Made by a program: the position numbers and the translations under genes. From IMG/VR virus record IMGVR_UViG_3300047509_000177, positions 1 to 64,000 of that record: a stretch of DNA of 64,000 nt. One strand, given 5' to 3'. This DNA is from a virus. Below are positions 3,644-31,876 of this stretch, one piece after another. Position 1 is the stretch's first letter. Each line of letters starts with the position of its first letter. The notes beneath the pieces were generated by a model. That model was not told the origin of the DNA and did not search any database. It worked only from the letters and a program-made list of their open reading frames with translations.

Positions 3644-3649
3644 ATCAGT

Positions 3650-4078
3650 ATGTGGATATCAAATAGAAAATTTAATGAACTGCACAAAGCTTATCTTGCA
3701 TTCAAGAAATTGTCAGAAGAGCAAACAGAAGATATAAGACGAATGACTAATCTTCTTAAAGAATCTGTCAAGATTATTGAGAAAGGAGATACAATAAATA
3801 GACAAATATATGAGATTAGAGATGCTATCAAAACTATAGAGAGATTTAATAATGAGAATGAAATAGAAAAGTATTTAAAAAATAAGAAATCCTCTTGGCC
3901 TGATCTTTGGATTGTCTCCAAGAGAGGCCGGGGAGGATTTTGGGCGATGAGCGCTAAGGACTATATGGACAGAAATTCTTTTTTCTTTATCCCGACCAAA
4001 ATCAGCCCAATTAAGCCAGTTTCTATGCCCGGTCCATCTAATTTGCCGCATGTTGGCCCTGGCGGTCCTATAACTTGA
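3650..4078 (+). CDS. Hypothetical coiled-coil protein
   Basis: ORF track; start moved to ATG 3650 because of the promoter position. Confidence 0.55.
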   Translation: MWISNRKFNELHKAYLAFKKLSEEQTEDIRRMTNLLKESVKIIEKGDTINRQIYEIRDAIKTIERFNNENEIEKYLKNKKSSWPDLWIVSKRGRGGFWAMSAKDYMDRNSFFFIPTKISPIKPVSMPGPSNLPHVGPGGPIT

Positions 4079-7800: not shown

Positions 7801-8021
7801 TGCAGGACAGAGTTCTTATTATAAATGGTGTTGTATCAACCGATGAGCTATCTAAACTTGGTATAGAAGTAGCAAAAGAATTTTCAGAAGCTGATAAAGT
7901 ATTTATTATAGATATAAAAGGATTTGCTAGACAAGTTAAGTATAGTTGTAAAGAAAATCTATCTAGTGTAAAGTATATAGACGCGAGTGTTATGCGAAGA
8001 AAACAGACGAATCCTGTATAA
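7797..8021 (+). CDS. Hypothetical protein
   Basis: 74-aa ORF coupled to the previous gene. Confidence 0.5.
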   Translation: MMQDRVLIINGVVSTDELSKLGIEVAKEFSEADKVFIIDIKGFARQVKYSCKENLSSVKYIDASVMRRKQTNPV

Positions 8022-8028
8022 TTGAGAG

Positions 8029-8277
8029 GTGGATCAAAAAGCGCTAACAAAACGGCAGGTAGAATTTCTGGCGAAATCAGCGCGCGGGATGACTTATGAG
8101 GAGATAGCAGAAACTTCTTTTGTAACTAAAAATACTGTGATATCTACTTTTTCTTCTGCTAGAAAAAGATTAGGAGCAGAGACCAACACTAAATGTGTTG
8201 TCATGGCAATAGCTCGTGAGGAATTGGGGTTGAGCCATGACGGAATATGTTTCGTTCCGAATTATGAGGAGGAATAA
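8029..8277 (+). CDS. LuxR-type helix-turn-helix transcriptional regulator
   Basis: LTKRQVEFL...ARGMTYEEIAETSFVTKNTV...ARKRLGA, the LuxR C-terminal HTH pattern. Confidence 0.85.
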   Translation: MDQKALTKRQVEFLAKSARGMTYEEIAETSFVTKNTVISTFSSARKRLGAETNTKCVVMAIAREELGLSHDGICFVPNYEEE

Positions 8278-8354
8278 ATTTTAATATTATGTATATTGAT
8301 AATATGGTTAGTAATTCTAGTGTTTATAATTGCTCTTTGTCAAATGGCTAAATA

Positions 8355-8393
8355 ATAAAGCCGCCCCCAATTATGAGGGCGGCTTATTTTTTA
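8355..8393. terminator. Bidirectional intrinsic terminator
   Basis: AAGCCGCCC-loop-GGGCGGCTT flanked by A- and T-rich tracts, between convergent genes. Confidence 0.8.
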
Positions 8394-8403
8394 TCTATTT
8401 ATA

Positions 8404-8829
8404 CTATCTAAGATATAAGCACGGAGGTATTGTATTTGGCCATGCGCCGGGGTCGATCCGTGACCAAGTGTTGAATATAATTGCTTGCTGCTCGGGGGAA
8501 GCTTCATAGGCATGACGCGCAAATCTACTCCCGCCTTGAGACAGCCAGGTTGAGTTTAGCCAGCTGAAGCCTCCCTCGTATAATCCTTCATTTTGGGCGG
8601 GAGTATCGCGCCAGTGGATTGTGCCGAAGCTTTTGCTTCCGGGAGAACCAGTCTCGTTATTAGCAACACATAGATCAAATAAAGTAATTACTGATCTATG
8701 TCTCTTGTGATGATGATGCTTAACTATATGAATCTTAGGATTCTTTTTAATATATCTTACTGATCTGCTATGTGTAGGAACAGCTATTGAGAATATAGCT
8801 ATTGCTAGGCTGCTTATCAGTGAAACGAT
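8404..8829 (-). CDS. Resuscitation-promoting factor (Rpf)-like lytic transglycosylase, probably secreted; non-canonical start (not in ORF track)
   Basis: Manual translation: hydrophobic N-terminus, then FDLCVANNETG...GLYEGGFSWLNSTWLSQGGSRFARHAYEASPEQQAIIF...GAWPNTIPPC; SD AGGAGG 9 nt before an in-frame ATC. Confidence 0.8.
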   Translation of the reverse strand: MVSLISSLAIAIFSIAVPTHSRSVRYIKKNPKIHIVKHHHHKRHRSVITLFDLCVANNETGSPGSKSFGTIHWRDTPAQNEGLYEGGFSWLNSTWLSQGGSRFARHAYEASPEQQAIIFNTWSRIDPGAWPNTIPPCLYLR

Positions 8830-8961
8830 ACAGGAAAACCTCCTGTTTGGTTTTGACTATGCGTTTGTCATAGCCCTAATAGAAAACAAGCCTTCTAAAT
8901 GGGAGGCTTTGTTGTTCTTTTCAAGCTTTCAATATCTGAGAGCTTTATGACTGCACCCTAC

Positions 8962-8990
8962 ACAATATCGAACTAGGGGTGGAAAGTCAA
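8962..8990 (-). promoter_or_regulatory. Promoter for the Rpf-like gene
   Basis: TTGACT-17-TATTGT on the minus strand. Confidence 0.6.
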
Positions 8991-9091
8991 GGAATTAATT
9001 TTACGTTTTGGGCTCAAATAATCTAATGACTAAATTTCATACCTTGTTGCTATTGAGATGATCTTGTCTATAGAACATAATTTATAGGTAG

Positions 9092-9337
9092 ATGCCAGCG
9101 CTAGAAACGCCGAGAGGAGCTAGCAAAGCAATTCCGCTGTTTGAAGCGGGCAGATTACGCTGCCCCCATGATAAGCAACTCCATGATCTCTTGTCTTATA
9201 AGCGATTTGATTTGCCTTCGGAATTTGAAACTCAGTTGAATGTTGTTTTAAGATGTGCCTTTTGCAGCCATGTATTCTCTCCACATTTGGATGACGGAGA
9301 GATGAGGCTTATATGTGAGGCTTTTAATGTTAGCTGA
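9092..9337 (+). CDS. Small zinc-ribbon-like protein
   Basis: CPHD and CAFCSH motifs. Confidence 0.55.
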   Translation: MPALETPRGASKAIPLFEAGRLRCPHDKQLHDLLSYKRFDLPSEFETQLNVVLRCAFCSHVFSPHLDDGEMRLICEAFNVS

Positions 9338-9842
9338 TATTAAAAAAGCTTCAAACAGAAGAGAAGAAGAAGTTTTTCTTGAAGAGATAGATAAAAGATT
9401 AGATCTTTTGTTAGCTAATTACCAAAGAGTTACTGCGAATCCTAGGTCAATGGGATATTTGAGGTTCTTGCTTCGGCATTATGCCAAATCCCCGACTCCT
9501 TGGAGAGATTGCTACAAAGATAATCTTAAGAGATTCGGGCCAGATAAAACAAAAGGAATATGCTCGGTTCTCAAGGACACACTTAGGCAGAGTACACATT
9601 GGAGGGGCCATCCTGCGGCGGATATAGGTTCGCCAGGAGTTGCAATTGCCGATGCAGATGCGAAAGCTGCTCCTCCTTGGGGAGGTCACCATCACATGTC
9701 TGAGAATAATTTAGATATGGGGCAAATGGCGATGCCTGAAGATATAGCTTTGGTACTAGAAGATCTTGGATCTAAGTGCGATGTATATCGTGTATTAATA
9801 GGGCTCGATGAGCCGCCTTCAGAACTTGGAATAGCGGTATGA
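9327..9842 (+). CDS. Head-module hypothetical protein
   Basis: Coupled to the protease gene; WRDC...GICSVL...HWRG motif. Confidence 0.5.
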   Translation: MLADIKKASNRREEEVFLEEIDKRLDLLLANYQRVTANPRSMGYLRFLLRHYAKSPTPWRDCYKDNLKRFGPDKTKGICSVLKDTLRQSTHWRGHPAADIGSPGVAIADADAKAAPPWGGHHHMSENNLDMGQMAMPEDIALVLEDLGSKCDVYRVLIGLDEPPSELGIAV

Positions 9843-12076
9843 GGAATAAACCTACGGTGGCGATGAAAGCTGCTAGCAAAAAGGGAATTGAACTTATTAA
9901 TTCCGGCGCGTTCCCTGTGACGGCTAGGGCTGAAGAAGTTGGCCGGAAAATAGCTTCAGACCAAGATTTAGATGAAAATCATCTTGTTGATATGGCTCAT
10001 TTTCATGCTGCCCACGGCGGAAATTGCCCTGATGACGATGCTGAGGATCTCCTTTGGGGCGGTCCTGCGGGCGGCGATTGGGCGCGGAAAAAGATGATGC
10101 AAAATATGAGAACTGGGTTGGCAGAGGAAGAATTAGATTTTAATAAAATTATATCTGATAAAGATTTAAATCTTAGCTTAGAGATTTATTCTGATATCCA
10201 ATTAGATGAGCCTACTGAAGAGACTGATGATGGGCTTATTTGGGCTCCAATTGCGCGGAGTGGAATGTTAGCTACTCGCCCCGGTCCTAATGGAGAGAAG
10301 CTAGACCAACCGCTCATTTTTGTTCCTGGTCGTTCAGAAGATCAGCGTAAAGAGATTGGTTTACAAGATATATACGATTCTTTTAAGGATAAAGCAATTG
10401 AGTATGTGACTCTTCCTCTGTCACATGAAAATAAAGTATTAGAGAACACTGGATACATCAAAGATCTTAAAATTATAGATTCTGCTAAATCTCCCGGGGA
10501 GAAAGTTCTTATGGGAGGGCATCAGTTTACGGAGCCCGACGTAAAAGGTAAAGTAGAAAGAGGAACTATTCCTTCGAGATCATCTGGCCTTCTTTATGAC
10601 TATAAGAATACTACTACTGGGAAAGTATATCCTATCGCGTTAGACCATGTATGCTTAACTCCTAAACCTTGGATGGGGGGGATGGAGCCATATGGTTCTG
10701 CTGATTTAGGAGATAGAACTATTATCCCTATGATGTTATCAGAGAAACCTTTTACGGCAAAACCTGTTGAGAAAACTTTGCCGACAAAACTTACGCAAGA
10801 AAAAAACACCATATCTCATCGAGAAATTAAAAAAGAAGAGATTCAGAGTGAGTTTCTTGCGGATATTGTATGGGGTGAAAAACCCTCATTTAGTAATATA
10901 GAAAAACAGGTAGAAGATATTTTGGATCATATGGGCGGTGGCGATATGGACGATTATCCAAAGTATTTTCTATTGGATTGCACTGATGATAAAGTACTTA
11001 TAAAGGTGAATTATGGAGTTGGACCGGACGAAGATGCTTGGGTGGTTCCATATAATGTTGATAAAGATGGAAATCTTCATTTAGCGCCGTTTAATGAATG
11101 GGTTGATTCTACAAAGAAATGGGTAACAGATACTTTAGATCCAGATAAAGATAAATCTGAATTAGATAGGTTGGGCATGAATGAGAAAGATAAGTTAATA
11201 GCTAGTTTATATCTAGATGTTACCCAAGCTGAGAGAGATAAGGCTAAATCTAATAATAATTCATTACCTGATGGTTCTTATCCAATAAATAATGTAAAAC
11301 AGCTTAATTCGGCAGCTATTCTTGCTGCTTCTAAACATGGGGATTACGAAGCTGCTAAAAGGCTTATTAGACGCAGAGCAAAAGAGTTGGGTGTAGACGT
11401 AACTACATTGAGTGGATTTGGAAAGAAAAAAGAATCATCTTCAAATATGGCTGATCCACTTAAAGTGGCTTCAGCAAATAGGCTCGGTTTATCCGAGGCA
11501 AATAACAGCCCCCTAGGAGGATCAATGACACTCCTTGCAATGTCGGAGGAGCAAATGGAGCTGCTTGGCCTTTCTGAGGAGGCCAAAGAGTTTCAGCGTA
11601 ATCAGAATAAAGAGATTCAGAAAATTAGTTTAGAGTTAGCTGAGTCTAAGAAAGTAGAGAAGGAAACTAAAACTGCAAATAAGATTGCAGAGTATAAAGC
11701 GGAAGGATTCGATACTTTTCCAGGTTTATTGATGGAGTACGAGACTACTGCTCTTAGTGACGATGGTGATATTGCTGTAAAACTTTGTCTTTCTGAGAAT
11801 GGACACGAAACTACTAAAGTTGAGACCGCTACTCAGATTGCTGAAAGGTTTATGGCGGCTATACCGCGCAAAGATAATAAAATTGATTTTAGCGAGATGC
11901 CTAATAAATTAGAATCTCCTATAAACGAAAGGCCAGATCTTAAACCAGAAGATCCTAATGCCGAGAATAAAATTATGACTGGGGATGATCTTCTTGAAAG
12001 AATGTTGTCCGAAAATCCAAACTTAGCAAAGGACCCTGAATTCCTTGCGTTGAGTGAGAACGGAAAAGGAAAGTAA
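9839..12076 (+). CDS. Capsid maturation protease / scaffold fusion
   Basis: Precedes decoration and MCP genes; protease-like core (PLSHEN, SRSSGL, LDHVCLTPKPWMGGM); N-terminal LLWGGPAG..WA module, LPDGSYPI...IRRRAKELG module, acidic coiled C-terminus. Confidence 0.75.
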   Translation: MRNKPTVAMKAASKKGIELINSGAFPVTARAEEVGRKIASDQDLDENHLVDMAHFHAAHGGNCPDDDAEDLLWGGPAGGDWARKKMMQNMRTGLAEEELDFNKIISDKDLNLSLEIYSDIQLDEPTEETDDGLIWAPIARSGMLATRPGPNGEKLDQPLIFVPGRSEDQRKEIGLQDIYDSFKDKAIEYVTLPLSHENKVLENTGYIKDLKIIDSAKSPGEKVLMGGHQFTEPDVKGKVERGTIPSRSSGLLYDYKNTTTGKVYPIALDHVCLTPKPWMGGMEPYGSADLGDRTIIPMMLSEKPFTAKPVEKTLPTKLTQEKNTISHREIKKEEIQSEFLADIVWGEKPSFSNIEKQVEDILDHMGGGDMDDYPKYFLLDCTDDKVLIKVNYGVGPDEDAWVVPYNVDKDGNLHLAPFNEWVDSTKKWVTDTLDPDKDKSELDRLGMNEKDKLIASLYLDVTQAERDKAKSNNNSLPDGSYPINNVKQLNSAAILAASKHGDYEAAKRLIRRRAKELGVDVTTLSGFGKKKESSSNMADPLKVASANRLGLSEANNSPLGGSMTLLAMSEEQMELLGLSEEAKEFQRNQNKEIQKISLELAESKKVEKETKTANKIAEYKAEGFDTFPGLLMEYETTALSDDGDIAVKLCLSENGHETTKVETATQIAERFMAAIPRKDNKIDFSEMPNKLESPINERPDLKPEDPNAENKIMTGDDLLERMLSENPNLAKDPEFLALSENGKGK

Positions 12077-12889: not shown

Positions 12890-14155
12890 ATGGCCAAGGC
12901 CAAAAAAACACAGTTAGAACGTCTTAAAAAGTATTGGAGTGAAAATAATATACCTGTCAATCCGATTACTGGGCTGGCAGAGATGTCGGGAGGAGCAGGA
13001 GTAAACGCTGAAATTTTTACTCCTGGGCCTGGAACTGTGGGGAATAACGTATTCGACATCTGGCCGCAGGCGGCGCTTACGGATATTTCTCTTCGTGCGC
13101 TGGAGACGGCTTGGGAGTCAATTGCATATATTGGGGCTAATATTGCGCCGTTGAAGCCTGTTTATGATCGTAAAATTCGTAGGGATATTGCTGAAGTGGC
13201 ACCGTTTGGTATCGGGCAGTTTCGGGCTCCGGATGCTACGCCGCAGATCTACAATCCTACGATCAATTATGTTGAGGAAGTCCAGGAGCTTTTGATTCTG
13301 GATGAGATGACGGAGATCAAGGAAGATCTTTGGATTCGTATGACTTCTGATGATCCGGTAATTAGAGCGCGCGCAGGAATTGATCTTGCGACATTAGGCA
13401 AGGTTCTTCAGCTTCGCCATGAGCGCCTTACTGAAGTAATGCGTTGGAAAGTATTTAAGGGCGAAGAACTGGTTGTTAAATTCTCTGGTAACCAGGAAAT
13501 CAAAATCAAGCCAAGTTATTTGGAAACTCACAAGGTTTCTGCAACTGTTCCTTGGACTGATCGTCTGAATTCTACGCCTATTGATGATATGCGTGGATGG
13601 CAGAAGATTATAGGTAATGATGCGGGAGTTTATGGGTCTCGGTTCCATATGAATTCGCAGACTTATCAGTATCTTCAGCGTTCGAACCAGGCGCGTGGTT
13701 ATTTGACTCAGACAGATAGAAATGTATTTCTTCCGAAGCCAGAAGATATTAAGACTTTGCTTTGGGGTTCTACTGAGTCTGATGCACAGGGCGGAGTTGC
13801 GGCTGAGGAACCGATGATTATTGTCACCGATTCTGGTTATCGTGAAGAAACTGGAAAAGCTGCTGGCACGGGGCTTACTGGTTATGAACGTGGGCAGGCT
13901 GCGATTACTAATTTCCTTAAAAATGGGGAAATTCTTGTTACTACAAGTTATGTATTCGAGGGTGAGAATATTGCGGATACTCTTGATGGGCCAGTTCTTG
14001 TATCGGACAGCTGGAACTCCCTGCGTAAAGAGATTGGTGCTCAGTCTGAGTTAATTATTAATCGTAATAATTACAATCAGTATATGCGCCAAGGTTGTTC
14101 AAGATTTGTTCGTATGCGGCGTCCGCAATGTTTTTTGTTAGCAAAGTGTTTTTAA
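12890..14155 (+). CDS. Major capsid protein (HK97 fold, gpE-like)
   Basis: Size and position; E.MRW.VF.G and PWTD..STPIDDMRGW motifs; strong SD AAGGAG. Confidence 0.8.
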   Translation: MAKAKKTQLERLKKYWSENNIPVNPITGLAEMSGGAGVNAEIFTPGPGTVGNNVFDIWPQAALTDISLRALETAWESIAYIGANIAPLKPVYDRKIRRDIAEVAPFGIGQFRAPDATPQIYNPTINYVEEVQELLILDEMTEIKEDLWIRMTSDDPVIRARAGIDLATLGKVLQLRHERLTEVMRWKVFKGEELVVKFSGNQEIKIKPSYLETHKVSATVPWTDRLNSTPIDDMRGWQKIIGNDAGVYGSRFHMNSQTYQYLQRSNQARGYLTQTDRNVFLPKPEDIKTLLWGSTESDAQGGVAAEEPMIIVTDSGYREETGKAAGTGLTGYERGQAAITNFLKNGEILVTTSYVFEGENIADTLDGPVLVSDSWNSLRKEIGAQSELIINRNNYNQYMRQGCSRFVRMRRPQCFLLAKCF

Positions 14156-16871: not shown

Positions 16872-17858
16872 ATGTCCAAAGGTGGATTCCAAAGAGTAAA
16901 CCCGCTGGGGCCTGGCTTTACGCGTGGCCCGGCTAGAATTTTGATTGCTCCATATACTTATTTATGGCCAACTCATATTGGTTCGATTATTAATCTAGAA
17001 GAAGAAGCAAATTGGAAAAACGAGAAACAGGAAATCTCAAAATTTGCTGAAGCTCCGTCTACCGGTACTTTTTATCTTGGCTTTGCGTCCTATCCGACTA
17101 CTGCTCTTACTGGTACTACCGTCACTGGGGAACAGATAGCTACTGCTTTAGAAGCTTTGCCGACGATTGGTACTGGTGGCATTACAATTACTAGCACTAA
17201 ATCTAAAAAACTTTCTGAAGAAGCTTTTAAATTTGAATTTGCTGGAGAACTTAAAAATCATGCTCAGCCTTTAGTTCAAGTTCTTAGAAATACTGTTAAA
17301 AAAGAATCTACTCCACTTGCTCTTACCGTCACGCGTACTCAGGCAGGATTTGGCGAATATGATCCGGTAGGGGAATGGACCGATCTTGGTGCTACTAAAG
17401 GTGGAATCAAAATCACCCGGAATAACACCGAGAGCTTGCAGGATATAGATCAGATTCAGGCTGCTGTGGCGGTGCTTCCTGACGAGTGGGAGATGTCCAT
17501 AGAGGCTCCTATTGCGGAAACTAATGAGGAAAATCTATCGGTGGCTTGGGAAGGCTCTGGCGTGACCGTGGATGCAACTCAGACTCCGACTGAGAATCAT
17601 ATAGGTTATGGAAATCCGCTTTCTTATGAAGAACGTCGTTTGGCGATTATCCATAAAATTACTCTTGGTTCCAACAAGAATAAACTGAAAGCGTTTGTTT
17701 TTCGTAAAGCAATGCGTTCTGCGACTGCGAGTACGATTGACTTTATGAAGACTGGCAATATGGCAACAGTTAATACTACATTTAGAGCATTCGCTGATGC
17801 TACTGTTGCTAATCCTCTTTATTCAATGGGTGAACTCATAGAAATGAATTATTTTTAG
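16872..17858 (+). CDS. Major tail (tube) protein with an inserted domain
   Basis: GPARILIAP, WTDLGATKGG, IAETNEENLSVAW and TTFRAFAD, as in actinophage tail tubes. Confidence 0.8.
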   Translation: MSKGGFQRVNPLGPGFTRGPARILIAPYTYLWPTHIGSIINLEEEANWKNEKQEISKFAEAPSTGTFYLGFASYPTTALTGTTVTGEQIATALEALPTIGTGGITITSTKSKKLSEEAFKFEFAGELKNHAQPLVQVLRNTVKKESTPLALTVTRTQAGFGEYDPVGEWTDLGATKGGIKITRNNTESLQDIDQIQAAVAVLPDEWEMSIEAPIAETNEENLSVAWEGSGVTVDATQTPTENHIGYGNPLSYEERRLAIIHKITLGSNKNKLKAFVFRKAMRSATASTIDFMKTGNMATVNTTFRAFADATVANPLYSMGELIEMNYF

Positions 17859-17880: not shown

Positions 17881-18201
17881 ATGGGAGCCACCGCTTATAT
17901 CATCCCTACTAGTTCTGGTCTGATTGAAGGTACAGCAGTATCGGATGAAAGTTCTTTGGGAGGGTTGTATAAAGGTGGCTCTCTTTTAGGTTGGAATTTG
18001 TATGGGAAAATTAAATCAAAGATAATATTTTACGATAATTCTACCGAAGCAAAAGGAACCAATTATGGGCCTATAACTTTAAACGAACATGAATCAATCA
18101 GAGATTGGTTTGGTTCAAATGGAATAAAGTTTAAAGAAGCTTTATATATGAAAGTAGTAGAAGGAGAAGTTGAAGGTGTAGTATTTGCTGCCGTAGAATG
18201 A
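17881..18201 (+). CDS. Small beta-rich virion protein
   Basis: 106 aa; FYDN...GIKF..ALY pattern. Confidence 0.55.
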   Translation: MGATAYIIPTSSGLIEGTAVSDESSLGGLYKGGSLLGWNLYGKIKSKIIFYDNSTEAKGTNYGPITLNEHESIRDWFGSNGIKFKEALYMKVVEGEVEGVVFAAVE

Positions 18202-18211
18202 AAGTAATTAT

Positions 18212-19879
18212 ATGTCTAACAGCGGTGCAAATTTTGAATCTTTAATACCGACAGAAATAGCAAATGGTAAAACCAATATCGATGTTCGGGCTTATGGAGC
18301 TGTTGCTGGAACAGATTGCAGCGCAGCCATTTTATCTGCTATAAAAGCTGCTGAGGAATCCGGATTAAAGGCATTTTCTCTTTATTTCGCAGCTAATAAA
18401 GTCTCTTATATGATGGCACTTGGTATACTCGGAGAAGCTGGTTCTGGAAAGGGTATTAGTATCAAGTTGTCTGGTGATGGATTGCGTGCTTCTAAAATAG
18501 CTCCTATAAACGCGTCTGAATCCATTCTAACTATTGAAGGGCCGAGCGATGAAACAAACCAGGGTTTTTCTATTGTTGATCTAGGTATAGAAATTCCTGA
18601 ACATCGCCGTTATGATAAACCTTTGTTTCAAATAAATCTTGCTAGAAGTTATCACCTTGAGAGAGTGCTATTGGACGGTGGTAACCACACTGGTACATTC
18701 TTTTCTCATGAGTCTTCTTATGCTGGTAGCTGGCGGGATGTACAGACGCAGCGTGGAGCATATTGTTTACCGTTTATTCATACAAACACGGTTAAACCAT
18801 TACAGCAATGTGATAATTTTGTCTTTGACAGGTGTGACTTTAGAGTAAACGGTCCGATTTTCCGCAATGCTTCTGACGAGGTGCATAGTGTAGTTATGGT
18901 TACTCCTAAGGCTGTGCAAACTGGAGAGTACCCTGAAGGTTCTAAGCTTTTAACAACTCTTTCTTCTGAAGCTTCTGCTGGAGCTACTTCATTGCATTTA
19001 ACATCAGTTACAGGATTGAAAGTAGGAGATCTTCTTAGAGTTGGCCATGATGCCAACGGGAATTCGTCAGATTATTGTCGTGTTACTGAAATTATTGGGA
19101 CCGAAGTTAAGGTAGCAGCGGAAACACCTTTATTATTCACCCATGCTACGGCAGCGGCGGTTCAACAGGGTGGTATACCTTTGACGCTGGGCGATGGTGT
19201 TCATGCCTGCACAATTATTCGTCCTCATTTTGAGCGGCATATGGCCGGTGTAGCGCTTGGCAATACCGCAGATGTGGAGATTTTTGGTTATTATGGAACA
19301 GTTGCTTATGGAGTGCTTGTTTGCGGTCCTACGATGCAGAAGGTTAAGATATCGGGGGCTGCGATGGGTGGTACAACAGTTGCTAATGAAATGTTTCATA
19401 CTTCTTCGGATAATCCTGCATCAGGATTGGGAGAATATATTTTTGAAGGACCATTATATACTATAACTGGAGCGACATTCACAGCAACCGCTAATGCTCC
19501 GTCATCGGTGAAGTATAAGACAGATATTCTTGATACCTCTTTATCGACTAATACCAGAAAGAACGTTGGTGGATCTTCAGCTTATAAGGATCGCGCTTGG
19601 GAGATAACTTCGGCCAATGTAACTAAGTTTAAGGTTCAATATAGTGGGAGAGGATTTTTTAATGATGGTATGTGCTTAGGTGACCTGGGATCGATTACTG
19701 GCAAAACAAGCGCTGAAATCGATACTCTTGTTGAAGAACGTGGTATTGCCCCCGGTGATGCTACAACTTTGGGTATTTTGCACTATACTGGCGAACGAGA
19801 AGGCGCGCGTGTATTGTTAGCTCGTAAAGCTGGCGCTGGTAATAAATGGCGTTATGTTGCTATGACGGAAATTTCATAG
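18212..19879 (+). CDS. Spike / depolymerase, pectin-lyase-like beta-helix
   Basis: IDVRAYGAV..TDCSAAILSAIKAA pectate-lyase-3-like start followed by beta-helix-like sequence. Confidence 0.7.
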   Translation: MSNSGANFESLIPTEIANGKTNIDVRAYGAVAGTDCSAAILSAIKAAEESGLKAFSLYFAANKVSYMMALGILGEAGSGKGISIKLSGDGLRASKIAPINASESILTIEGPSDETNQGFSIVDLGIEIPEHRRYDKPLFQINLARSYHLERVLLDGGNHTGTFFSHESSYAGSWRDVQTQRGAYCLPFIHTNTVKPLQQCDNFVFDRCDFRVNGPIFRNASDEVHSVVMVTPKAVQTGEYPEGSKLLTTLSSEASAGATSLHLTSVTGLKVGDLLRVGHDANGNSSDYCRVTEIIGTEVKVAAETPLLFTHATAAAVQQGGIPLTLGDGVHACTIIRPHFERHMAGVALGNTADVEIFGYYGTVAYGVLVCGPTMQKVKISGAAMGGTTVANEMFHTSSDNPASGLGEYIFEGPLYTITGATFTATANAPSSVKYKTDILDTSLSTNTRKNVGGSSAYKDRAWEITSANVTKFKVQYSGRGFFNDGMCLGDLGSITGKTSAEIDTLVEERGIAPGDATTLGILHYTGEREGARVLLARKAGAGNKWRYVAMTEIS

Positions 19880-19896
19880 TGACTGGATAAAATAGA

Positions 19897-20229
19897 ATGG
19901 CTAACTGGACTTATACTGAAAATGCAGAAAAGAAGAATATAAGTATTCTACTTAGGAATGGACAACTTATATTAAGAATAGGAACTTACGCTAACTTAAC
20001 TTCTGAAGAGGTAACACAGGTATTAGATAGCGGTGTGGGAGTAGTATTGAAAGAAGGGATTGTATCACCTGCAACTCCCGCTACTGGAGGAAGTTCATCT
20101 TCTTCAGCAACAGTTTTCGTATGGAAACCAAAAACTTATTTAACAGAAAATAGTTTAGTTGTTAGCCCTGAAGGAGAACTCCTAAGAACACTTAGGAATT
20201 TTGAAACTGGAGAAACCTATGTGTTTTAA
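19897..20229 (+). CDS. Small virion adaptor-like protein
   Basis: 110 aa; Ser/Gly linker followed by a partial CBM5/12-like motif. Confidence 0.55.
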   Translation: MANWTYTENAEKKNISILLRNGQLILRIGTYANLTSEEVTQVLDSGVGVVLKEGIVSPATPATGGSSSSSATVFVWKPKTYLTENSLVVSPEGELLRTLRNFETGETYVF

Positions 20230-20238
20230 GGAGATGCA

Positions 20239-22458
20239 ATGAGTAATAGTGGAGCTAATTTTGAATCTCTTTTGCCAACTACAGTAGTAAACAGTAGTTC
20301 TACAGGTGGGATTGAAACATGGAAAGCTCATACTACTTATTCACTTAATAGACTTGTTCAAGAAGCTGGTATAGTTTATATTTGTAAGGAAACTCATGAA
20401 TCGGGAGAAACTTTCAGCGGTGTCGGCGCTCACTGGGAAATTGTTGCTGGTCTTGGGGCGGTATTTGCTTGTGTACCGCCCACTGGCGTAGCAGCTACGG
20501 ATACGAAAAATGTGGAAGCGACGTTTACGGCTGCTAGTGCATCTAATGGTGCAGCTTTTTTCTTACATGCTGGCGCATACAACATTAATGTTAAAGAACT
20601 TGTACGACCGCATAATATCTCGATAGTTGGTACGGCAGATACGATCTTTCGGGCTCAAGCTGGATGCGAAATTCTACTTTCCGACTCTCTTACTGAAAAG
20701 ACTGAATATAAGTCGATAGTCGGCGGTTTGCGGCTGGATGCGAACAACATCGCTAAGCACGCCCTATGGTGCAGGTTCTTCAACCACATGGTGTTTGGCG
20801 TCAAGCCCTACAACTCTCTCGAAGACGATTGGATACTCGGCGACAGTAACGCGGCAGCGGCAAGCGCCGAACCTGTGTTTACTGATGAGTGTCTCGTTCA
20901 GCGCACAACTGGGAGTGTTCCGGTCGGGCATTACTGCATCTGGGCACAGAACGCATCAGATGGCAGAATGCCCGGAACCGTAATGACCGGCCAGGAAACC
21001 GGGCTCAGGGTCGATAACGGCGGCTGGCGTGGTTTCGGTGTGCACCCCGTCGGTGCTGGGTTCCCGATGCAGGTCGGCATAGATGACCATTCGGGTGGTA
21101 ATGAGTGGCACGGTACCAACCTCGACACGATGACTGGTAAAGAACATGCTGGAGCTACGGGTGAAGCTGCAAGCTCTACGATCACAGATGCGGAAATTCT
21201 TGCGCAACATCTAAATAGACCAGTGAGCGGAGTAAATATACCGGCTGGTTCTTTTGTGGGTACTGTTACACCTGGTGTAAGTTTTAATCTTGTAAATGCT
21301 AAAAATGTAGCGGTTAAACCAACGGGAGTAGTAACAGGTATTAGATTGAATGGTGTTGGTTGCTTGATGCGTTTTACTGGCGGCGGACTGGTAGGAGGGC
21401 TGGGATTAGTCAATACTACTTATGGCAATGATAACGATATGTACGGCATGATTATTGGACCGCAATCGACGGGTAATTACGCGCTTGGCTTCCGTGCGAG
21501 AGGAGGCAATGCAGAACATAGGTTGATTCAAGCTTTTGCGGGGAATACTTCTGTTCTCACATGGGTGGGGTTGATGCAGCAGGAAAACTGTGTAAATACA
21601 CAGGTCGTCACTCAGTTGACTGGAACAGCAACAGGGACGACGGCTGCGGAAAAAGATAACTCGGCCACGCTTGCTACTACTGCTTATGCCGACAGAGCTG
21701 CTGCTGCTGGTGGAACTCCTCTTGAACCATCGATCATTCTTGCGAACACTACATACAATATTCCGACAGGTGCTAAATATCTACAAGCTGTAGCTGTGGG
21801 CGGAGGTGGTGGAGGCGCGGGAGCTGGATCGGCCGCAGCGGCTCAGTTACAAACTGGTGGTGGCGGGGGCGCTGCTGGTGTTTCTGCTCGACGGATGCTT
21901 AAAGTGGGAGAATCGACTACGGCAGAAGTAGTAGTTGGTGCAGGAGGTGCAGGAGGTAATGGAGGGGCGGCGGGTGGCACAGAAGGTGTGGGGGGTACGC
22001 AAGGCAGCGAATCAAGAGTCAAAGTAGGGGCGACGACGGTAAAGGGGCTTGGCGGCGCGCCAGGTGCAAAATCTACAGCTTCATCGACAACTATTGCTGG
22101 TGGTGGAGTTTATGGCGGCAATGGTGCTGCAACTGGCGTGGCAGTTGGAGGCTCGGGTGGCGGAAGCGCTCTTGGCGGTGGCAAGAACATAGATGCTACA
22201 GGTGGCGGAGGAGCTGGTGGTGGCACCGCTACGGCCACTAATGGCGGCTCAGGCGGTGGTGCTGGTACTGAAATCGCTGGTGGTACGGCAGGTACATCAG
22301 GTGGCAGCGGTACGTCGGCTGGTGGTGAAGGCGCTACTGCGGCGGCGAATACCGCAGCAGGCGGTGGAGGCGGAGGTGGTGGTGCGGCGGGGACCGGAGC
22401 TGGCGGGAAAGGCGGCGAAGGTGGCAGCGGCTATGTAGTTATCCAGCCCATTGCTTAA
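20239..22458 (+). CDS. Spike/fibre: CBM5/12-like + beta-helix + glycine-rich C-terminus
   Basis: WKAHTTY...YICKETH.SG.TF....HWE motif; PTGVAATDT; long Gly-rich domain ending GGSGYVVI. Confidence 0.7.
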   Translation: MSNSGANFESLLPTTVVNSSSTGGIETWKAHTTYSLNRLVQEAGIVYICKETHESGETFSGVGAHWEIVAGLGAVFACVPPTGVAATDTKNVEATFTAASASNGAAFFLHAGAYNINVKELVRPHNISIVGTADTIFRAQAGCEILLSDSLTEKTEYKSIVGGLRLDANNIAKHALWCRFFNHMVFGVKPYNSLEDDWILGDSNAAAASAEPVFTDECLVQRTTGSVPVGHYCIWAQNASDGRMPGTVMTGQETGLRVDNGGWRGFGVHPVGAGFPMQVGIDDHSGGNEWHGTNLDTMTGKEHAGATGEAASSTITDAEILAQHLNRPVSGVNIPAGSFVGTVTPGVSFNLVNAKNVAVKPTGVVTGIRLNGVGCLMRFTGGGLVGGLGLVNTTYGNDNDMYGMIIGPQSTGNYALGFRARGGNAEHRLIQAFAGNTSVLTWVGLMQQENCVNTQVVTQLTGTATGTTAAEKDNSATLATTAYADRAAAAGGTPLEPSIILANTTYNIPTGAKYLQAVAVGGGGGGAGAGSAAAAQLQTGGGGGAAGVSARRMLKVGESTTAEVVVGAGGAGGNGGAAGGTEGVGGTQGSESRVKVGATTVKGLGGAPGAKSTASSTTIAGGGVYGGNGAATGVAVGGSGGGSALGGGKNIDATGGGGAGGGTATATNGGSGGGAGTEIAGGTAGTSGGSGTSAGGEGATAAANTAAGGGGGGGGAAGTGAGGKGGEGGSGYVVIQPIA

Positions 22459-25312: not shown

Positions 25313-28300
25313 ATGGCCGACGCGGACTTCTTGATAGAGATATTGGCGAGATTAAGAGATGAGGCTTCTCCTGGATTAGCAAAACTCAAGGCAGAGATAA
25401 ATAGTATCAAGGGAACTCAAGACGCTGAGAATGCAGAGAAGGATCTTGGCAATGCAATAAAGGGTACTGGCGAAGAGGCTGATCGCTCGAAGAGAAAGCA
25501 TGAAGGTCTAAGAACAGAGCATGAAAAGTCTCGTCGTGCGGCGGATGACGCCGGGAGAGGAGTTAGATCTCTTAGTGAAGATCTAGAGAGAGGAAGAAAG
25601 AGTGTTGATGCTCACGCTGAGTCGATGAGCGCTGCTGCAAGTGATCAGGAAAGATTTGCTAAGTCGTCAGAAGAGGTATTGAAGGGGGCGAAGGAGGCTG
25701 GAGACGGTGTAGAAGATCTACATTTGAGGATGTCGAAATTAAAAACTTCTTGGTCTAACTTTGATAATTTACTTAGAAACGGAGAGTTAACAAAGGGACA
25801 AGCTAAAAGAGGTTTACAAGAATATTCATCTGAGTTTTCTTCCCTTATGAAAAAGATTGAGACCGGAAGCCAAGAATGGAAACATCTAGAGGCTATTCTA
25901 GACAATGTAAATAGAAAACTCAGGAACCCTACTTCTGGAAAATCTTTTGAATCTTTAAATGATTCTTTATCTGGTGCTGGATCCGGTCTACGAATAACTG
26001 GAGTTGCATCTTTCTTACAAGGCTTGAAAGATCTATCTCTTATAGCTATTTCTCCACAGCTTATTACTGGAGTGGCTTCGTTAGCAGGGGGATTATTTTC
26101 GGTTGCTTCTGCTGCTGTCCAAGCGGGATCAGCGCTGGCGGGAGCTTTTGTTTCTGGTCTAGGCCAAGCAATACCGATGCTTTCGATTGTTGCTGCTTCT
26201 ATAGAGAGATTTAAAAATATTCTTCAGGCAGTTTCTGTTGCCGGGCAAGCAGAACAACAGCATTTCTATGATCCTACTGAAAAACAGGTTCTTCAGCTAC
26301 AACAAAGTAGCCAATTAATTAGTTCTAATCAACAACTTTCTAACTCTTATATTCAATTATTCGAGGCTCAACAAAGAGTTAGAGACTCTCAAATAGCTCT
26401 TACTGAAGCTAGATATACAGCTCAAAGGCAGATAACTGAGCTTGCTTTGGCAGAAAAAAATGCACGCCTTCAAGCAGAAGGCGCGAATATATCCCTTACT
26501 GAATCTAAAAGGCAACTTCAAATTGCGATTCAGAGAGGAGATGTTGCTGGGCTTCAGCAGGCAGAATTGGCGGTAAGAGAGGCTGAATTAAATAAGAAAA
26601 AAGCAGACTTTGAAATTCCTAAAACAGAACGTGAAGCACGCCTAGCCCGAGAGAGAGGCGTAAGCGGTGCGCCGTCTGTTATTAGCGCTGTACGTGGGCT
26701 AGAAGGCTCTCGTCTTGCTGTAGTTCAGGCACAGCAGAGCGCAGAAGCGGCGCAGAGACAAAAACAAATAATAGATCTTCAGCGTCAAGCTAGATCATCT
26801 AAAGAAACTCAGTTTGAAGCTCAGCTTAAATTCTTTGAGAAAGGAATGTCTCCTACAGAGCTTGGGTTGACAAATGCTCTGATAGGTATTGAGAAGGAAC
26901 TTAAATCTCCTAATTCTCCTTTGAAGAGAATAACTAATTATTTTGTAGAACCTTTTACCAATGCTATCGAGAGAATCAGATCTCTTCTTAAGAATTCGTC
27001 TTTTCTTAGGCCGCTAGATGAACTAGCAAAGTCGATGGGCGCTGGTCTTGGTCGTCTTGAGAAAGCTGCGTTTGGCAAGGAAGGAACTTCTTTCTTTGAG
27101 CAGATGGCTAGAGATGCTAAAGAAAATATACCTATTGTATCTCAGTCTATTGAAAGGATAATGAAAGTTTTTGAGGATATAGCTAAGGCTGCTGGGCCTG
27201 CTTTTCATAAATTAAGTGAAGATTGGGATAAATTCTGGGGTAAACTAGATATAAAATATGGTACTCCTATAGGCTTCTCTCTACTTGAAAAATTCTTTAA
27301 TAAATCAGTTGAATATGCAGAAGCTTTTGGGAAACTAGGAAAAGCTTTATATGGTCTTTTTATATCTATTGGTCATGATGCTGCTCCACAAGGTTTGTCT
27401 ACTGTAACTGGGTTTACCGGGGCAGTAAAAAGCGCTACCGAATGGGTCAAATCTCATGGACCAGAGGTAACTAAATTTTTCAAGGAAGCGCGTGAAGGTT
27501 TAGAGACTATAGGAGGTCTATTATTTACTATAGGGAAGGATTTTCTTGAAGCTTTCAGTTTAAGTTCTTTAAGAGCTTTAAGCGGATTTCTTTCTCAATT
27601 CCTTTTGCCAGGTCTTAGAGATGTTATAAATATAATAGGCAAAATAACTACAGCAGTTCTTGATTTCTTTAATCTATTCGGTTCTGCTGGTAGAAAGGCT
27701 TTAGAGGTTCTTGCTGCTTTTGTGTTGGGGACTTTGGGTTTAATCAAAGTTATTGCTTTTATAAATGAGCTTCGAAAAGCTATTATTGAGTTATGGGCTA
27801 CGATTGTTGCTTTAGAGGGATTAGCTTTTTGGACAGCTATTGGTGCAGGGATAGTTGCTGCCGCCGCAGCTTTAGGATTGTTTGATAGTGCTCAGAAGAA
27901 GACTAAAATTACCACTGAAGAAATTAACAATGCTCTTGAAAGGCAAGCTGAAGCTTTAAGAACTATAAAGAGTTTAAATGATGAATATGCGAGTTCTAAG
28001 CTTTCAGTAGAAGAAGCCAACCTAAGAGTAACGCAGTCAGAACAAACTTTGGCTAGGGCAAAGCACAGTTTAGCCCATCCTGAAAGACCTTTATCGCGCG
28101 AAGAGCGCGCTGAAGCTGTTATAGGAATTAAGCAAGACGAACAATCTGTTACTAGAGCTAGATTAAGCGCAAGAGAAGCACAAGAAAATTTTGAAAAGCT
28201 TCCAGAACAACAAAGAGAAACAGCAAAGAAGGAAACTTCTGTTGCGCGTAAGAGCGCCGCTGAAGCTCGTGCCCTGAATAAGCAAAACACTGAAGAACTT

Positions 28301-31300
28301 AGGTCTCTTGAAAAGGAAAGAACTGAAGCAGAGCAGAAGATTAGTAAGGGTAGGGAAGTAGGAGGGTCAATAGGACATGAAATTGAAGTAAATGCAAAGT
28401 CTGAAGTAGTAAAGATAAATGAAAAGATTGTGTCTAGCAACAAGAAGTTAAAGGAATCACAAGAATCTCTTGGAACAGCAGTTCTTAGAGAAAATGAAGC
28501 AATAAACTCCTCTAATGCCTTAACTTCTCAAGGTGCTTCAAAGTATAGTACTGCGTTTGCAGAAGCATTCTCTAAGTTTGAAGAGTCTGTTAGAAAGGGC
28601 GCTTCTTCTGCGCATGATGGAATGGGCAAGATAAGAAAGCTTGTCGATGATGCTTTAAAGAAGTATGGAGTTACTCCTGCCGAAATAGCTAGTGGCTCTT
28701 CTGCAATAGGCAAGGTATCTAGCGGAATTAGTTCGGCTGGTAGGGCTGTGTCTAAGGGGCTAGAAGGGTTTGCTTCTGGCGGATATATACCTGCTAAATC
28801 AGGGGGGCAGATTGCGCGGGTAGGAGAGGGTGGTCATGATGAGGTAGTTCTTTCTACAGATCCTAAATATGCGGGGAGAAGTAGAGCTCTTCTCGGCCAA
28901 TATTTCTCCCGAGCGCCGCATATGGCCGCTGGTGGGTATATATACCCGTTCCACGGTGGAGCGACCAAAGGTAGAACAGATCAGGGTATAGATTATGATC
29001 TTACTCCAGGTTCACCAATTACTTCGATTGGTGATGCTAAAATAAAGGGTATAATATCTAATTGGTTTAAAGGTCAGTCTTTCCTTTGGTATGAACTTTT
29101 AAGCGGGTTAGATAAAGGGAAAAATGTATATATAGCTGAGCAAATAAATCGTTTATCTCAAGTTGGGTCAACTGTAAGAGCAGGACAACCTATTGCTTAC
29201 TATGCTCCTTCTGGAACTGGTTTGGAGATTGGTTGGGCTACTTCTTCCGGGCAAACTCTCGCTCAAGCTACTACCGGATATAGAGAGGGGCAAGTAACTC
29301 CTGCTGGAGCTTCTTTTGGAGCTTTTATCTCGGGTCTGCAACAAGGAAAAGTAGTTGGAGGACTTCAAGCTTTTAAGGAAATTATTGCTCCGAAAGTAAA
29401 AGGTGGAGGCATTATTGGGCAAATAAGTCAAAGAGCTTTGAATTTGGCTGCAAAAGCTGCGAATATATATCTTGAAAAACATATTTCTTCGGGGGGAGAA
29501 GCTAATTTCGCTGGGGTAAGTGGGCATGGTGGTGCGCCGAGTGCCAATGAAGCTTTAGGGAAGCGCATGATGGTTGCTGCTGGCTGGCCTGTAGGTATGT
29601 GGCCTTCTTTGCAAGCTTTGTGGACGCAGGAGTCGGGATGGAACGCGAATAGCGTGAATTCATCCAGTGGCGCTTACGGTATTCCCCAATCGCTCGGGCA
29701 CGGTCATCCCTATAACCTTGGCGATGCTCGTGCGCAGATAGCTTGGGGGCTTAATTATATTCGTGAACGATATGGCTCTCCTGTCGCTGCTGAGGCTCAT
29801 GAGCGAGCTTTTAATTGGTATGCCAAAGGTGGTGTAATCCAAGCTGTTAGAGAATTTGCAGCGGGCGGTAGAGCGCCGTGGGGCGGTAGACCAGTACCAA
29901 TAATCGCTCACGAGGGCGAGCGCATTATGAATCCTGCTCAATACAATGCTACGGCCAGTTTGGCGGGAATTTCGCCGAGAGGTTTAGATAAGTATCTTGG
30001 TTATGATGGCTCTCCCCGGCAGAACTTCGCTGCTGGTGGTGGCCCTATAGCTATTGGTCAACGTTCTCAGCCTATGAGTGAATTTGAACCTAATTTGATA
30101 AGCCAGTTTACGAATATAATTTTTGAAATTGGTAATATAAGCAATATTTTAAAATCTTTCAATAAAGTTAAAAAAGCTTTCTCGAAACTTAAAAAATCTA
30201 GTGGAGAGAATTTTGTAAAGAATCTTGAAAAGATTATAAATGAAATTGTCATAGAAACAAATGGAGTTTTGGCTAGATTGCAAGAAGGAAGAGAATTCTT
30301 TAAAGCTCGCTTGGAAAGAAAATCAGTAGAGAAAGAGTATACTGCTAAAGGTGGGAAAATACAATTAGGATCAAAAGGGCAGATTGGTATAGCTGAATTT
30401 TCTGAAAAAAATCTCGCTGAAGAATCGAAATATCTTCAAACCGAACAAAAAATAATTGATAAAGCTATATCTGAAACTAGAAAAATAAAACCAAAAAATC
30501 AGAAGCAAGCGCAAGCAAAGTCTACCGCATTGAAAACTTTAGCTGTAAAACAAAAAGAACTTCTTGAAACTATAGATCAAAATGTAGAAGCTAGATACCA
30601 GGCTGAGGCTCAAACTATCCAGGCTAAAATAACTGAAGCTAATAATCAATATCAAGTTTCTTCCCAAGAACAACAAACTAAAATTTCTAAAGCTCAGGCT
30701 TTTGGTAATCTTGGAGAAGTAGGAAAGTTGGAGGAACAAACTGCTACTTCTGCTCAAGCTCAGATTTCTAGGCTAACCCCTATGCTGGAACAAGCTCAGA
30801 AAATTGGTAATAAGGAACTTGAATCTAGTATAAAACAAGAAATTATTGGTTTACAGCAAACTATAAATACTACAGTAATAGAAAGAATCTCTAATGCACA
30901 GACTTTGATACAGAGAGAATCGGCGCAAGCTGAATCAAAAGTTGGTAGAAGGCTTGGGATTGCAAAGGTATTATCTGCTGAAGGAAGATATAGTGCTGCA
31001 AACGCTGAAGAAGAAGTAGGATTAAAAGAAAAAGGAACCAATTTACTCAATACCAGAGCGGTAGAGGAAAAACTAAAAGAACAAGCTTTGCGGGAAGGCG
31101 ATACTGCTGCTGCTATAACTTTGGGCGAGGAATTGGAAAAGAACAGTGTAGAAATAGCTGAAAATAATCTTGCTCTAAAAAACAATGCTGCTGTGACAAG
31201 GGAATTAGTTCTTAGTCAAATAGGAAGAGAAACAGGAGTTGGAACAGGTATTTATGGGGCGCTTCGATCCGGGATCGAAACAATAGGAAAGACAACTGGA

Positions 31301-31876
31301 TTTACAAATGTTGCTGCTTTGATAACTACTGCAAAGGGCGAAGGCGCTGTGCTTGGGGCGGGCGAGAAAAAATATGAGGAAACAGGAACTGAAATGGGAT
31401 TTCAGACTGTTGGTATGACTGCTCAGCAGGTTCTTCAATATCTTACTTCTCCTGAAGCACAGTCTATAATCTCTAGAATAGAGACTACGGGCACAGAAGC
31501 AGAAAAAGCTGATCTTGAAAAGTGGCTTTTTGGGATAGAGGGCAACTCTGTTGCTATTTTGAAGAATACAGAAGAACTTGCGAGGTTGAATGGGCAGCTA
31601 AATCAACCGCAAAGCTTTTCTACTGCTGCTTTCAATGCCTTCAGGACTTCTTTCTTTACTGGCATGGGAGGGCTATTAGAACCTTATTCGGCGGCGCTTC
31701 CGCCGGGATCTCGCCCAGAAGGTCTTCCTGTATATGGTTCTGGGCAAGTTGGAGCGCCTATGAGTTCAACTCATATTGAGAATATCAATCTTACTCATCC
31801 TGTAGAGAAGCTTCATCCGGGTCTGTTGGGAGAAGAATTGTCCTACCATATTTCAGTGACACCGCCTACTTCATGA
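25313..31876 (+). CDS. Tape measure protein with M23-like and lytic transglycosylase domains
   Basis: 2187 aa, helical and Ala-rich, follows the chaperones; SD AGGAGGT; ESGWN...SSGAYGIPQ...YIRERYG SLT motif; RTDQGID M23-like motif. Confidence 0.9.
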   Translation: MADADFLIEILARLRDEASPGLAKLKAEINSIKGTQDAENAEKDLGNAIKGTGEEADRSKRKHEGLRTEHEKSRRAADDAGRGVRSLSEDLERGRKSVDAHAESMSAAASDQERFAKSSEEVLKGAKEAGDGVEDLHLRMSKLKTSWSNFDNLLRNGELTKGQAKRGLQEYSSEFSSLMKKIETGSQEWKHLEAILDNVNRKLRNPTSGKSFESLNDSLSGAGSGLRITGVASFLQGLKDLSLIAISPQLITGVASLAGGLFSVASAAVQAGSALAGAFVSGLGQAIPMLSIVAASIERFKNILQAVSVAGQAEQQHFYDPTEKQVLQLQQSSQLISSNQQLSNSYIQLFEAQQRVRDSQIALTEARYTAQRQITELALAEKNARLQAEGANISLTESKRQLQIAIQRGDVAGLQQAELAVREAELNKKKADFEIPKTEREARLARERGVSGAPSVISAVRGLEGSRLAVVQAQQSAEAAQRQKQIIDLQRQARSSKETQFEAQLKFFEKGMSPTELGLTNALIGIEKELKSPNSPLKRITNYFVEPFTNAIERIRSLLKNSSFLRPLDELAKSMGAGLGRLEKAAFGKEGTSFFEQMARDAKENIPIVSQSIERIMKVFEDIAKAAGPAFHKLSEDWDKFWGKLDIKYGTPIGFSLLEKFFNKSVEYAEAFGKLGKALYGLFISIGHDAAPQGLSTVTGFTGAVKSATEWVKSHGPEVTKFFKEAREGLETIGGLLFTIGKDFLEAFSLSSLRALSGFLSQFLLPGLRDVINIIGKITTAVLDFFNLFGSAGRKALEVLAAFVLGTLGLIKVIAFINELRKAIIELWATIVALEGLAFWTAIGAGIVAAAAALGLFDSAQKKTKITTEEINNALERQAEALRTIKSLNDEYASSKLSVEEANLRVTQSEQTLARAKHSLAHPERPLSREERAEAVIGIKQDEQSVTRARLSAREAQENFEKLPEQQRETAKKETSVARKSAAEARALNKQNTEELRSLEKERTEAEQKISKGREVGGSIGHEIEVNAKSEVVKINEKIVSSNKKLKESQESLGTAVLRENEAINSSNALTSQGASKYSTAFAEAFSKFEESVRKGASSAHDGMGKIRKLVDDALKKYGVTPAEIASGSSAIGKVSSGISSAGRAVSKGLEGFASGGYIPAKSGGQIARVGEGGHDEVVLSTDPKYAGRSRALLGQYFSRAPHMAAGGYIYPFHGGATKGRTDQGIDYDLTPGSPITSIGDAKIKGIISNWFKGQSFLWYELLSGLDKGKNVYIAEQINRLSQVGSTVRAGQPIAYYAPSGTGLEIGWATSSGQTLAQATTGYREGQVTPAGASFGAFISGLQQGKVVGGLQAFKEIIAPKVKGGGIIGQISQRALNLAAKAANIYLEKHISSGGEANFAGVSGHGGAPSANEALGKRMMVAAGWPVGMWPSLQALWTQESGWNANSVNSSSGAYGIPQSLGHGHPYNLGDARAQIAWGLNYIRERYGSPVAAEAHERAFNWYAKGGVIQAVREFAAGGRAPWGGRPVPIIAHEGERIMNPAQYNATASLAGISPRGLDKYLGYDGSPRQNFAAGGGPIAIGQRSQPMSEFEPNLISQFTNIIFEIGNISNILKSFNKVKKAFSKLKKSSGENFVKNLEKIINEIVIETNGVLARLQEGREFFKARLERKSVEKEYTAKGGKIQLGSKGQIGIAEFSEKNLAEESKYLQTEQKIIDKAISETRKIKPKNQKQAQAKSTALKTLAVKQKELLETIDQNVEARYQAEAQTIQAKITEANNQYQVSSQEQQTKISKAQAFGNLGEVGKLEEQTATSAQAQISRLTPMLEQAQKIGNKELESSIKQEIIGLQQTINTTVIERISNAQTLIQRESAQAESKVGRRLGIAKVLSAEGRYSAANAEEEVGLKEKGTNLLNTRAVEEKLKEQALREGDTAAAITLGEELEKNSVEIAENNLALKNNAAVTRELVLSQIGRETGVGTGIYGALRSGIETIGKTTGFTNVAALITTAKGEGAVLGAGEKKYEETGTEMGFQTVGMTAQQVLQYLTSPEAQSIISRIETTGTEAEKADLEKWLFGIEGNSVAILKNTEELARLNGQLNQPQSFSTAAFNAFRTSFFTGMGGLLEPYSAALPPGSRPEGLPVYGSGQVGAPMSSTHIENINLTHPVEKLHPGLLGEELSYHISVTPPTS

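Follow-up and report, generated by a model that had tools for sequence, protein, structure and literature searches.

How do two spike proteins with unrelated bodies come to share the same N-terminus, and what is the small gene that lies between them? The question is raised by a 64,000-nucleotide stretch of viral DNA (hereafter the window), which is the first 64 kb of the 91,381-base IMG/VR record IMGVR_UViG_3300047509_000177, an uncultured soil phage with a completeness estimate of 98%. Here two spike genes flank a gene for a 110-amino-acid (aa) protein, and MSNSGANFESL(I/L)PT is the N-terminus of both spikes. On balance we think it probable that these genes form a split spike-attachment system, composed of a modular adaptor (the 110-aa protein) and spikes that carry a common tag. 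Every gene of the region lies on the + strand, and its parts are as follows.

18212..19879, + strand: spike 1, 555 aa
18212..18253, + strand: tag copy 1, MSNSGANFESLIPT
19897-20229, + strand: gene of the 110-aa adaptor
19897..20067, + strand: adaptor N-domain (residues 1-57), whose homologue forms the N-terminus of the fused 1117-aa spike in a related phage, L003
20068..20121, + strand: Pro/Gly/Ser-rich linker of the adaptor (residues 58-75)
20122..20226, + strand: C-terminal stub of the adaptor, 35 aa (residues 76-110), apparently CBM5/12-derived, cut after a conserved aromatic residue and without the Trp strand
20227..20238, + strand: TAA stop and 9-nucleotide (nt) spacer GGAGATGCA with the Shine-Dalgarno sequence GGAG, in frame with spike 2
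20239..22458, + strand: spike 2, 739 aa
20239..20280, + strand: tag copy 2, MSNSGANFESLLPT
20305..20451, + strand: complete CBM5/12-like unit of spike 2 (residues 23-71), E 3.3e-18 against a hidden Markov model (HMM) of 108 independent units

That the two spikes open alike, with DNA that diverges largely at synonymous sites, and are otherwise dissimilar had been claimed in an earlier note made from the letters alone, and is borne out. Over the first 14 codons 13 of the 14 residues are identical, the I/L exchange being the one non-synonymous change; eight of the 13 identical residues are encoded by different codons (Ser2, for instance, by TCT in one copy and AGT in the other), and 30 of 42 nt are the same. 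Beyond residue 14 the codon differences between the spikes are mostly non-synonymous, and a BLASTP alignment of spike 1 with spike 2 covers residues 1-30 only. Because so many of the identical residues differ in codon, the tag peptide is under purifying selection and is not the scar of a recent recombination; a relic of that kind was rejected on account of the synonymous divergence. That the shared N-terminus is a functionless leftover of recent duplication or recombination has nothing to recommend it beyond the identity itself, and is opposed both by the codon differences and by the retention of the tag on other bodies in L004, L005, P0017 and P0089: we give it next to no credence. In the 91-kb genome a scan with a degenerate DNA pattern of the tag gave two matches, against a chance expectation of 0.01.

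The six tag-bearing proteins have only the tag or hinge in common, their bodies being of at least four unrelated kinds, and the tag hardly varies among phages with adaptors of only 39-60% identity. Written as a synthetic peptide the tag is SNSGANFESLLPT. Many homologous fibre proteins have a junction motif, xQLPSSVV, after N-terminal modules of other kinds, and in it the second half of the tag region (LPxxVV) is seen again; this suggests that the specific docking part is about MSNSGANFES and that a common hinge follows it. The tag DNA patterns had no match in the viral contigs database. In the genome contigs database the tag pattern gave 11 matches, all ascribed to chance (about 9 are expected from the information content of the pattern), and none of them starts a spike gene; residues 1-40 of spike 1, used as a query, matched nothing but themselves. 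As a separate observation, x-Q-L-P-S-S-V-V joins diverse N-terminal fibre modules to a CBM5/12-like unit or to a body in P0020, P0021, P0043, P0104, P0105, P0039 and P0052. In P0039 and P0052 it stands no more than 15 residues from the N-terminus, and the short N-termini of these two proteins may be other docking tags.

Behind the tag the two spikes go separate ways. In spike 1 the body follows directly, and searches for a family, PDB or cultured-phage match to it found none. Spike 2 consists of tag, LPxxVV hinge, CBM5/12-like unit, a central body whose homologues bear other N-terminal modules, and a C-terminal Gly-rich domain, PF21722 (residues 503-736). The last of these (Gly_rich_2, E 2.2e-11; window positions 21745-22446) has 40-64% identity to more than 100 long proteins that otherwise differ, and looks like a mobile C-terminal module.

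The adaptor has 15 homologues at 53-81% identity, several of them on contigs of 77-99 kb; it belongs to no Pfam or PHROG family, and its profile has no relative in the PDB. In the family alignment the C-terminal segment reads W-x-x-x-T...EN-x-LVVSPEGELLRTLRNF-x-SGE-x-YVF, with the stop codon always next (...GETYVF* in the window). Mean pairwise identity is 83% over the last 27 aa vs 61% over the N-domain, so that conservation within the protein is highest in the stub.

This C-terminus had been read as a CBM5/12-like motif of the kind found inside spike 2, lacking its last strand, and comparison upholds that reading. The 110-aa gene aligns with the spike 2 unit at 33% identity over 48 aa (E 0.008), and hhalign places columns 1-36 of the stub family profile on columns 7-41 of the 63-column unit profile (probability 95.4%, E 1.8e-8). 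Against an HMM of 55 positions, built from 108 complete units in proteins outside this phage lineage, 16 of 17 adaptor C-termini align to positions 3-39 and end at 37-39, that is, 1-2 residues past the conserved Phe; the strand 'stdianWeli', with its nearly invariant Trp, is missing. The window's own stub matches this HMM weakly (independent E value 0.037), with a local match that ends at position 22, and has no Pfam match, PF02839 included. As for the identity of the unit, the repeat to which that of spike 2 belongs occurs in other fibre-like proteins as arrays, the longest of 17 copies, and is called CBM_5_12 by Pfam (P0127, 17 repeats, E 2.9e-111); P0127 matches PDB chains 3wx7, 4ny2 and 1ed7, which are CBM12 or chitin-binding domains. 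The spike 2 unit alone scores 15.6 bits against PF02839, under the cut-off of 26.2, while its homologue P0089 scores 26.3 and the repeat arrays far higher. Judging by these alignments, the stub is a truncated CBM5/12-type unit, comprising the first two thirds. A scan of the whole genome found one complete unit (that of spike 2), one adaptor N-domain and one stub. Modeling of the adaptor alone from a 16-row alignment (AlphaFold2 (AF2), predicted local distance difference test score (pLDDT) 38; Atlas model 0.38) was uninformative on whether the stub folds by itself.

The earlier note proposed a search for fused homologues and for further tag-bearing genes, and both came to light. L003 (IMGVR_UViG_3300043787_000164) shares its structural module with the window, the two capsid proteins being 78% identical. 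In it the homologue of a conserved 106-aa protein, encoded upstream of spike 1 in the window, is followed by a single 1117-aa gene (8001-11354) that comprises the adaptor N-domain, a complete unit ending ENWELIG, the sequence GGGGG and a 1,000-aa body. This fused form was detected by profile scan alone; a search of the word-indexed database for longer (fused) adaptor forms found none, and a search of L003/L006 for the tag and the YVF* stub found neither. In L004 an adaptor of 112 aa has the C-terminus GETYVF*, and the next gene, whose body is unrelated to those of both window spikes, has the N-terminus MSNSGTNFESLIGE. The L005 adaptor (162 aa) consists of the N-domain, a complete unit that by eye is about 75% identical to the L003 unit, and then a stub ending YVF*; the N-terminus of the gene after it is MGNSGVNFESLLPS. 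Two more proteins, P0017 and P0089, were found to begin with the tag in an exhaustive search with spike 2: the first has a spike-2-like body without the unit, the second has the unit and then a different continuation. Stub and tag thus stand together in 3/3 split loci. Because the adaptor N-domain is the N-terminus of a spike in L003, and because stub and tag come and go jointly, the comparison speaks, as a fusion/fission argument, for adaptor and tagged spikes being physically linked.

The same data bear on the proposal that the 110-aa protein is a transient assembly chaperone, which would recognise the tag on each spike and would not be part of the virion. A small gene between two spike genes, with no family match and no confident fold for its product alone, is what that proposal would lead one to look for. 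Fibre chaperones (Tfa, gp38-type) are usually encoded after the fibre gene. In L004 and L005, however, the adaptor gene is 5' of the spike gene, and the N-domain is the covalent N-terminus of the 1117-aa spike in L003, as befits a structural part. We consider a chaperone distinctly unlikely.

Under the split-attachment reading, the history and working of the locus would be as follows. In an L003-like ancestor a single polypeptide would have comprised an anchor domain (the N-terminal 57 aa), a CBM5/12-type unit and the spike body. In the window phage the anchor would have become separate, as a 110-aa adaptor that ends in the 35-aa CBM5/12-derived stub (...SPEGELLRTLRNFxSGExYVF), and each spike would begin with a docking peptide of 11 to 14 residues (mature SNSGANFESL, Met removed) followed by the LPxxVV hinge. 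The docking peptide would bind the adaptor non-covalently, most probably at the stub, and the N-domain, as presumed virion anchor, would keep the complex of adaptor and spike on the virion. Since both spikes have the same peptide and the one adaptor has one stub, they should compete for the same sites, giving virions with mixed spikes. Binding of the tag to the adaptor and the choice of the stub as its site are what the sequences suggest; the N-domain's position on the virion is likewise inferred.

The stop codon of the adaptor, as the earlier note observed, is in frame with spike 2 across a gap of 9 nt. The same holds in 3/3 split loci, with offsets from start to start of 342, 351 and 612 nt, and this shared frame is what speaks for production of adaptor and spike 2 as one protein, by functional read-through of the stop. 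The gaps tell otherwise: that of the window contains one stop, that of L004 two and that of L005 four, and in the window the Shine-Dalgarno sequence GGAG and an ATG are present. Moreover, spike 1 has the same tag without an in-frame partner upstream, the offset between the preceding start at 17881 and its own at 18212 being 331 nt, a number not divisible by three. Because of the number of stops and the Shine-Dalgarno sequence, read-through was rejected as the mechanism, and we rate it very unlikely. The shared frame may be a relic of fission or a coincidence.

A more demanding proposal concerns how the tag would bind. The earlier note matched SGANFESL with the strand missing from the stub. In its full form the idea is that evolution has divided one CBM5/12 repeat between a universal anchor, which has 35 residues of it as a 'socket', and interchangeable spikes, which bear an 11-residue 'plug', and that the fold is rebuilt in trans with Phe8 of the tag in place of the conserved Trp. 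Were this true, the locus would hold a natural non-covalent tag/catcher pair, with one anchor able to carry any spike and virions bearing a mixture of spikes. We regard it as conceivable but doubtful, and the tag as a beta-strand that completes the truncated fold as one candidate binding mode, put forward tentatively.

Several results weigh against the split-attachment reading, and against this form of it in particular. When six natural tags were appended to the stub, the HMM alignment was not extended into positions 40-50, and the score of stub plus tag was no better than that of about 2,000 control peptides. With an ungapped position-specific scoring matrix of the missing strand, the best register of the tag is the one put forward in the earlier note (ANFESLI vs anWelig); it scores 2.5 bits, a value that about 10% of random 16-mers drawn from this phage also attain, as do 5 of its 55 other N-termini. 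For the N-terminus of the adaptor itself (ANWTYTE or AIWTYVE) the score is 7-9.4 bits in most of the family, a level to which 0.3-1.6% of random peptides rise. A joined AF2 model (the adaptor, its stop read as Gly, then GDA and residues 1-22 of spike 2) had a pLDDT of 50, the N-domain lying at 61-68, the stub appearing as three weak strands and the tag, at less than 50, as no strand; a Foldseek search of this model against BFVD returned nothing with E <= 0.001, and both AF2 models (pLDDT 38 and 50) are too uncertain to use. Complex prediction from the adaptor alignment and the tag alignment gave an interaction prediction score from aligned errors (ipSAE) of 0.00 in both runs, which, the controls not having been run, is evidence in neither direction. 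Neither a physical nor a predicted interaction of tag and adaptor was obtained. The adaptor/tag pairs inspected number three, the contigs of 14 further adaptor homologues lying outside the comparison. Finally, the spike/adaptor cluster sits 5' of the tape-measure and Dit/Tal genes, and for this reason no virion location is assigned to it. Of what the earlier note had put forward, the part that comparative genomics supports is that of interchangeable spikes with one N-terminal tag and one small adaptor; the tag as the missing last strand is not supported, its match being at chance level, that of the adaptor N-terminus better and the modeled tag below pLDDT 50.

By sequence alone, then, self-completion by the adaptor's N-terminus is a candidate at least as good as the tag. 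This leads to a different account of the locus, in which the tag docks on another virion protein (the 106-aa protein, for example, or a neck or tail component) and the adaptor is an independent stump or short fibre. The N-terminal strand of the adaptor (M-A-x-W-T-Y-x-E) would then close the truncated unit, so that the protein would fold by itself in circularly permuted form. On the missing-strand profile adaptor N-termini score up to 9.4 bits (0.3% of random peptides) vs 2.5 bits for the tag (about 10%), and a strand at residues 4-9 is predicted in both AF2 runs. However, the N-terminal strand is retained (as MPIFTYVKN) in L003, where the unit is complete and a stub is lacking, so that this strand is probably part of the N-domain; the Trp is replaced by Tyr or Phe in P0005, P0008, P0016 and L003; and the joint gain and loss of stub and tag is left unexplained. 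We take this account to be unlikely, if the most serious of the alternatives, and retain the split-attachment reading.

The surroundings of the cluster contain the following features.

12890-14155, + strand: major capsid protein, weak Phage_cap_E and phrog_29 matches
between the capsid gene and 16872: several small proteins
16872-17858, + strand: 328-aa Ig-domain protein
17881..18201, + strand: conserved 106-aa phage protein
between spike 2 and 25313: four small genes
25313-31876: 2187-aa tape-measure-like protein
downstream of the tape-measure gene: Dit/Tal-type tail-tip module

The tail module is of siphovirus type. A homologue of the 106-aa protein lies directly 5' of the adaptor or fused spike in 3/3 relatives, and its Atlas matches are viral hypothetical clusters only. 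No cultured phage resembles the spike/adaptor region by DNA or by protein, PDB sequence searches with the region's proteins gave no matches, and a search of IMG/VR for further relatives with the major capsid protein found the L003 contig only.

Directly after the tape-measure gene, at 31884-33521 of the window, stands a third spike-like gene (phrog_4636 'tail spike protein', E 2.4e-46; a weak K1-lyase_C match at the C-terminus), which is without the tag. It is therefore probable that spikes are also present at the tail tip; those with the tag may have another place, for instance the neck or tube. Other observations concern neighboring genes. The tape-measure-like protein (25313-31876) contains peptidase-like and lysozyme-like segments in its middle, as judged by eye. 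The 328-aa Ig-domain protein (16872-17858) and a 256-aa protein encoded 5' of the L003 capsid gene (L003 1042-1812) have a domain in common, 'GTF(Y/T)L.. ..T..I...A....I..ALE.L.TIG', which may be a decoration or tube-surface domain that is used twice. Between its capsid gene and the following structural gene L003 also has an inserted 265-aa open reading frame (3128-3925), by eye a homing endonuclease of GIY-YIG type (N-terminus ...IYALVDPRTDEVRYVGKT...), which is absent from the same place in the window.

Among known systems, the strand mechanism proposed above has its nearest likeness in chaperone-usher pili, in which an incomplete beta fold is completed by the N-terminal extension of the next subunit (donor-strand complementation). 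The likeness is by analogy with the mechanism only: the pilus fold is Ig-like, whereas that considered here is CBM5/12-like, and a tag strand in the stub is hypothetical. We found no paper on strand complementation in the docking of phage tail fibres. The units of spike 2 and its relatives are like CBM5/12 modules (PF02839; PDB 1ed7, 3wx7, 4ny2); the stub, unlike these, retains the first two thirds only, and has a lineage-invariant SPEGELLRTLRNF in place of the Y-x-C...H-T-S signature.

Closer parallels come from phages that bear two spikes. In the anchor-branched receptor-binding proteins (RBPs) of KP32, K11 and KP34, RBP1 has a branching domain and RBP2 a 'conserved peptide'; the N-terminal peptide by which a secondary RBP of Klebsiella phages docks is essential for its incorporation, and such peptides are lineage-specific and may be only 7 residues long (PMC6872550, PMC13352976). 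A short, lineage-specific N-terminal peptide on an RBP, presumed to serve for docking, is what we describe here too. In those phages, however, the socket lies within a full primary RBP, whereas here the socket protein would be body-less and both RBPs 'secondary'.

The best counterpart is gp37 of K1-5/K1E/SP6, an adapter that carries two tailspikes via an N-terminal hepta- and undecapeptide (Leiman et al. 2007, as summarised in PMC6872550) and that is thought to derive from an anchor-bearing spike minus its body (PMC6872550). Here also a small protein without a receptor-binding domain is presumed to carry two different spikes, and a short conserved N-terminal peptide stands on unrelated spikes that are encoded beside a body-less adapter. 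The differences are several. At 110 aa the adapter is a third of the size of gp37 (about 300 aa); it has no family match (Pfam, PHROG) of the T7 gp17-type anchor or T4 gp10-like kind, and is too short for both domains. Both spikes have one and the same peptide, whereas gp37 uses two distinct peptides for two sites; as socket a truncated CBM5/12 unit is presumed; and the tail module of the phage is of siphovirus type, with the spike and adaptor genes placed upstream of that for the tape measure.

Docking peptides and adapters underlie plug-and-play engineering of host range in podophages of Klebsiella and E. coli (PMC6872550, PMC13352976). What the soil siphophage lineage adds is an unrelated and much smaller version, with an adapter of 110 aa and a tag of 11 to 14 aa, and because a fused, ancestor-like form persists in L003 the point of breakage can be read directly. 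Should the tag not bind the stub, the locus would provide one more lineage-specific docking peptide; should it bind, the locus would provide a compact natural connector for the mounting of receptor-binding proteins and an example of gene fission within a small beta domain. By analogy, the arrangement would be a functional counterpart of the adapter and docking-peptide systems of K1-5, SP6 and KP32 that stands outside their family.

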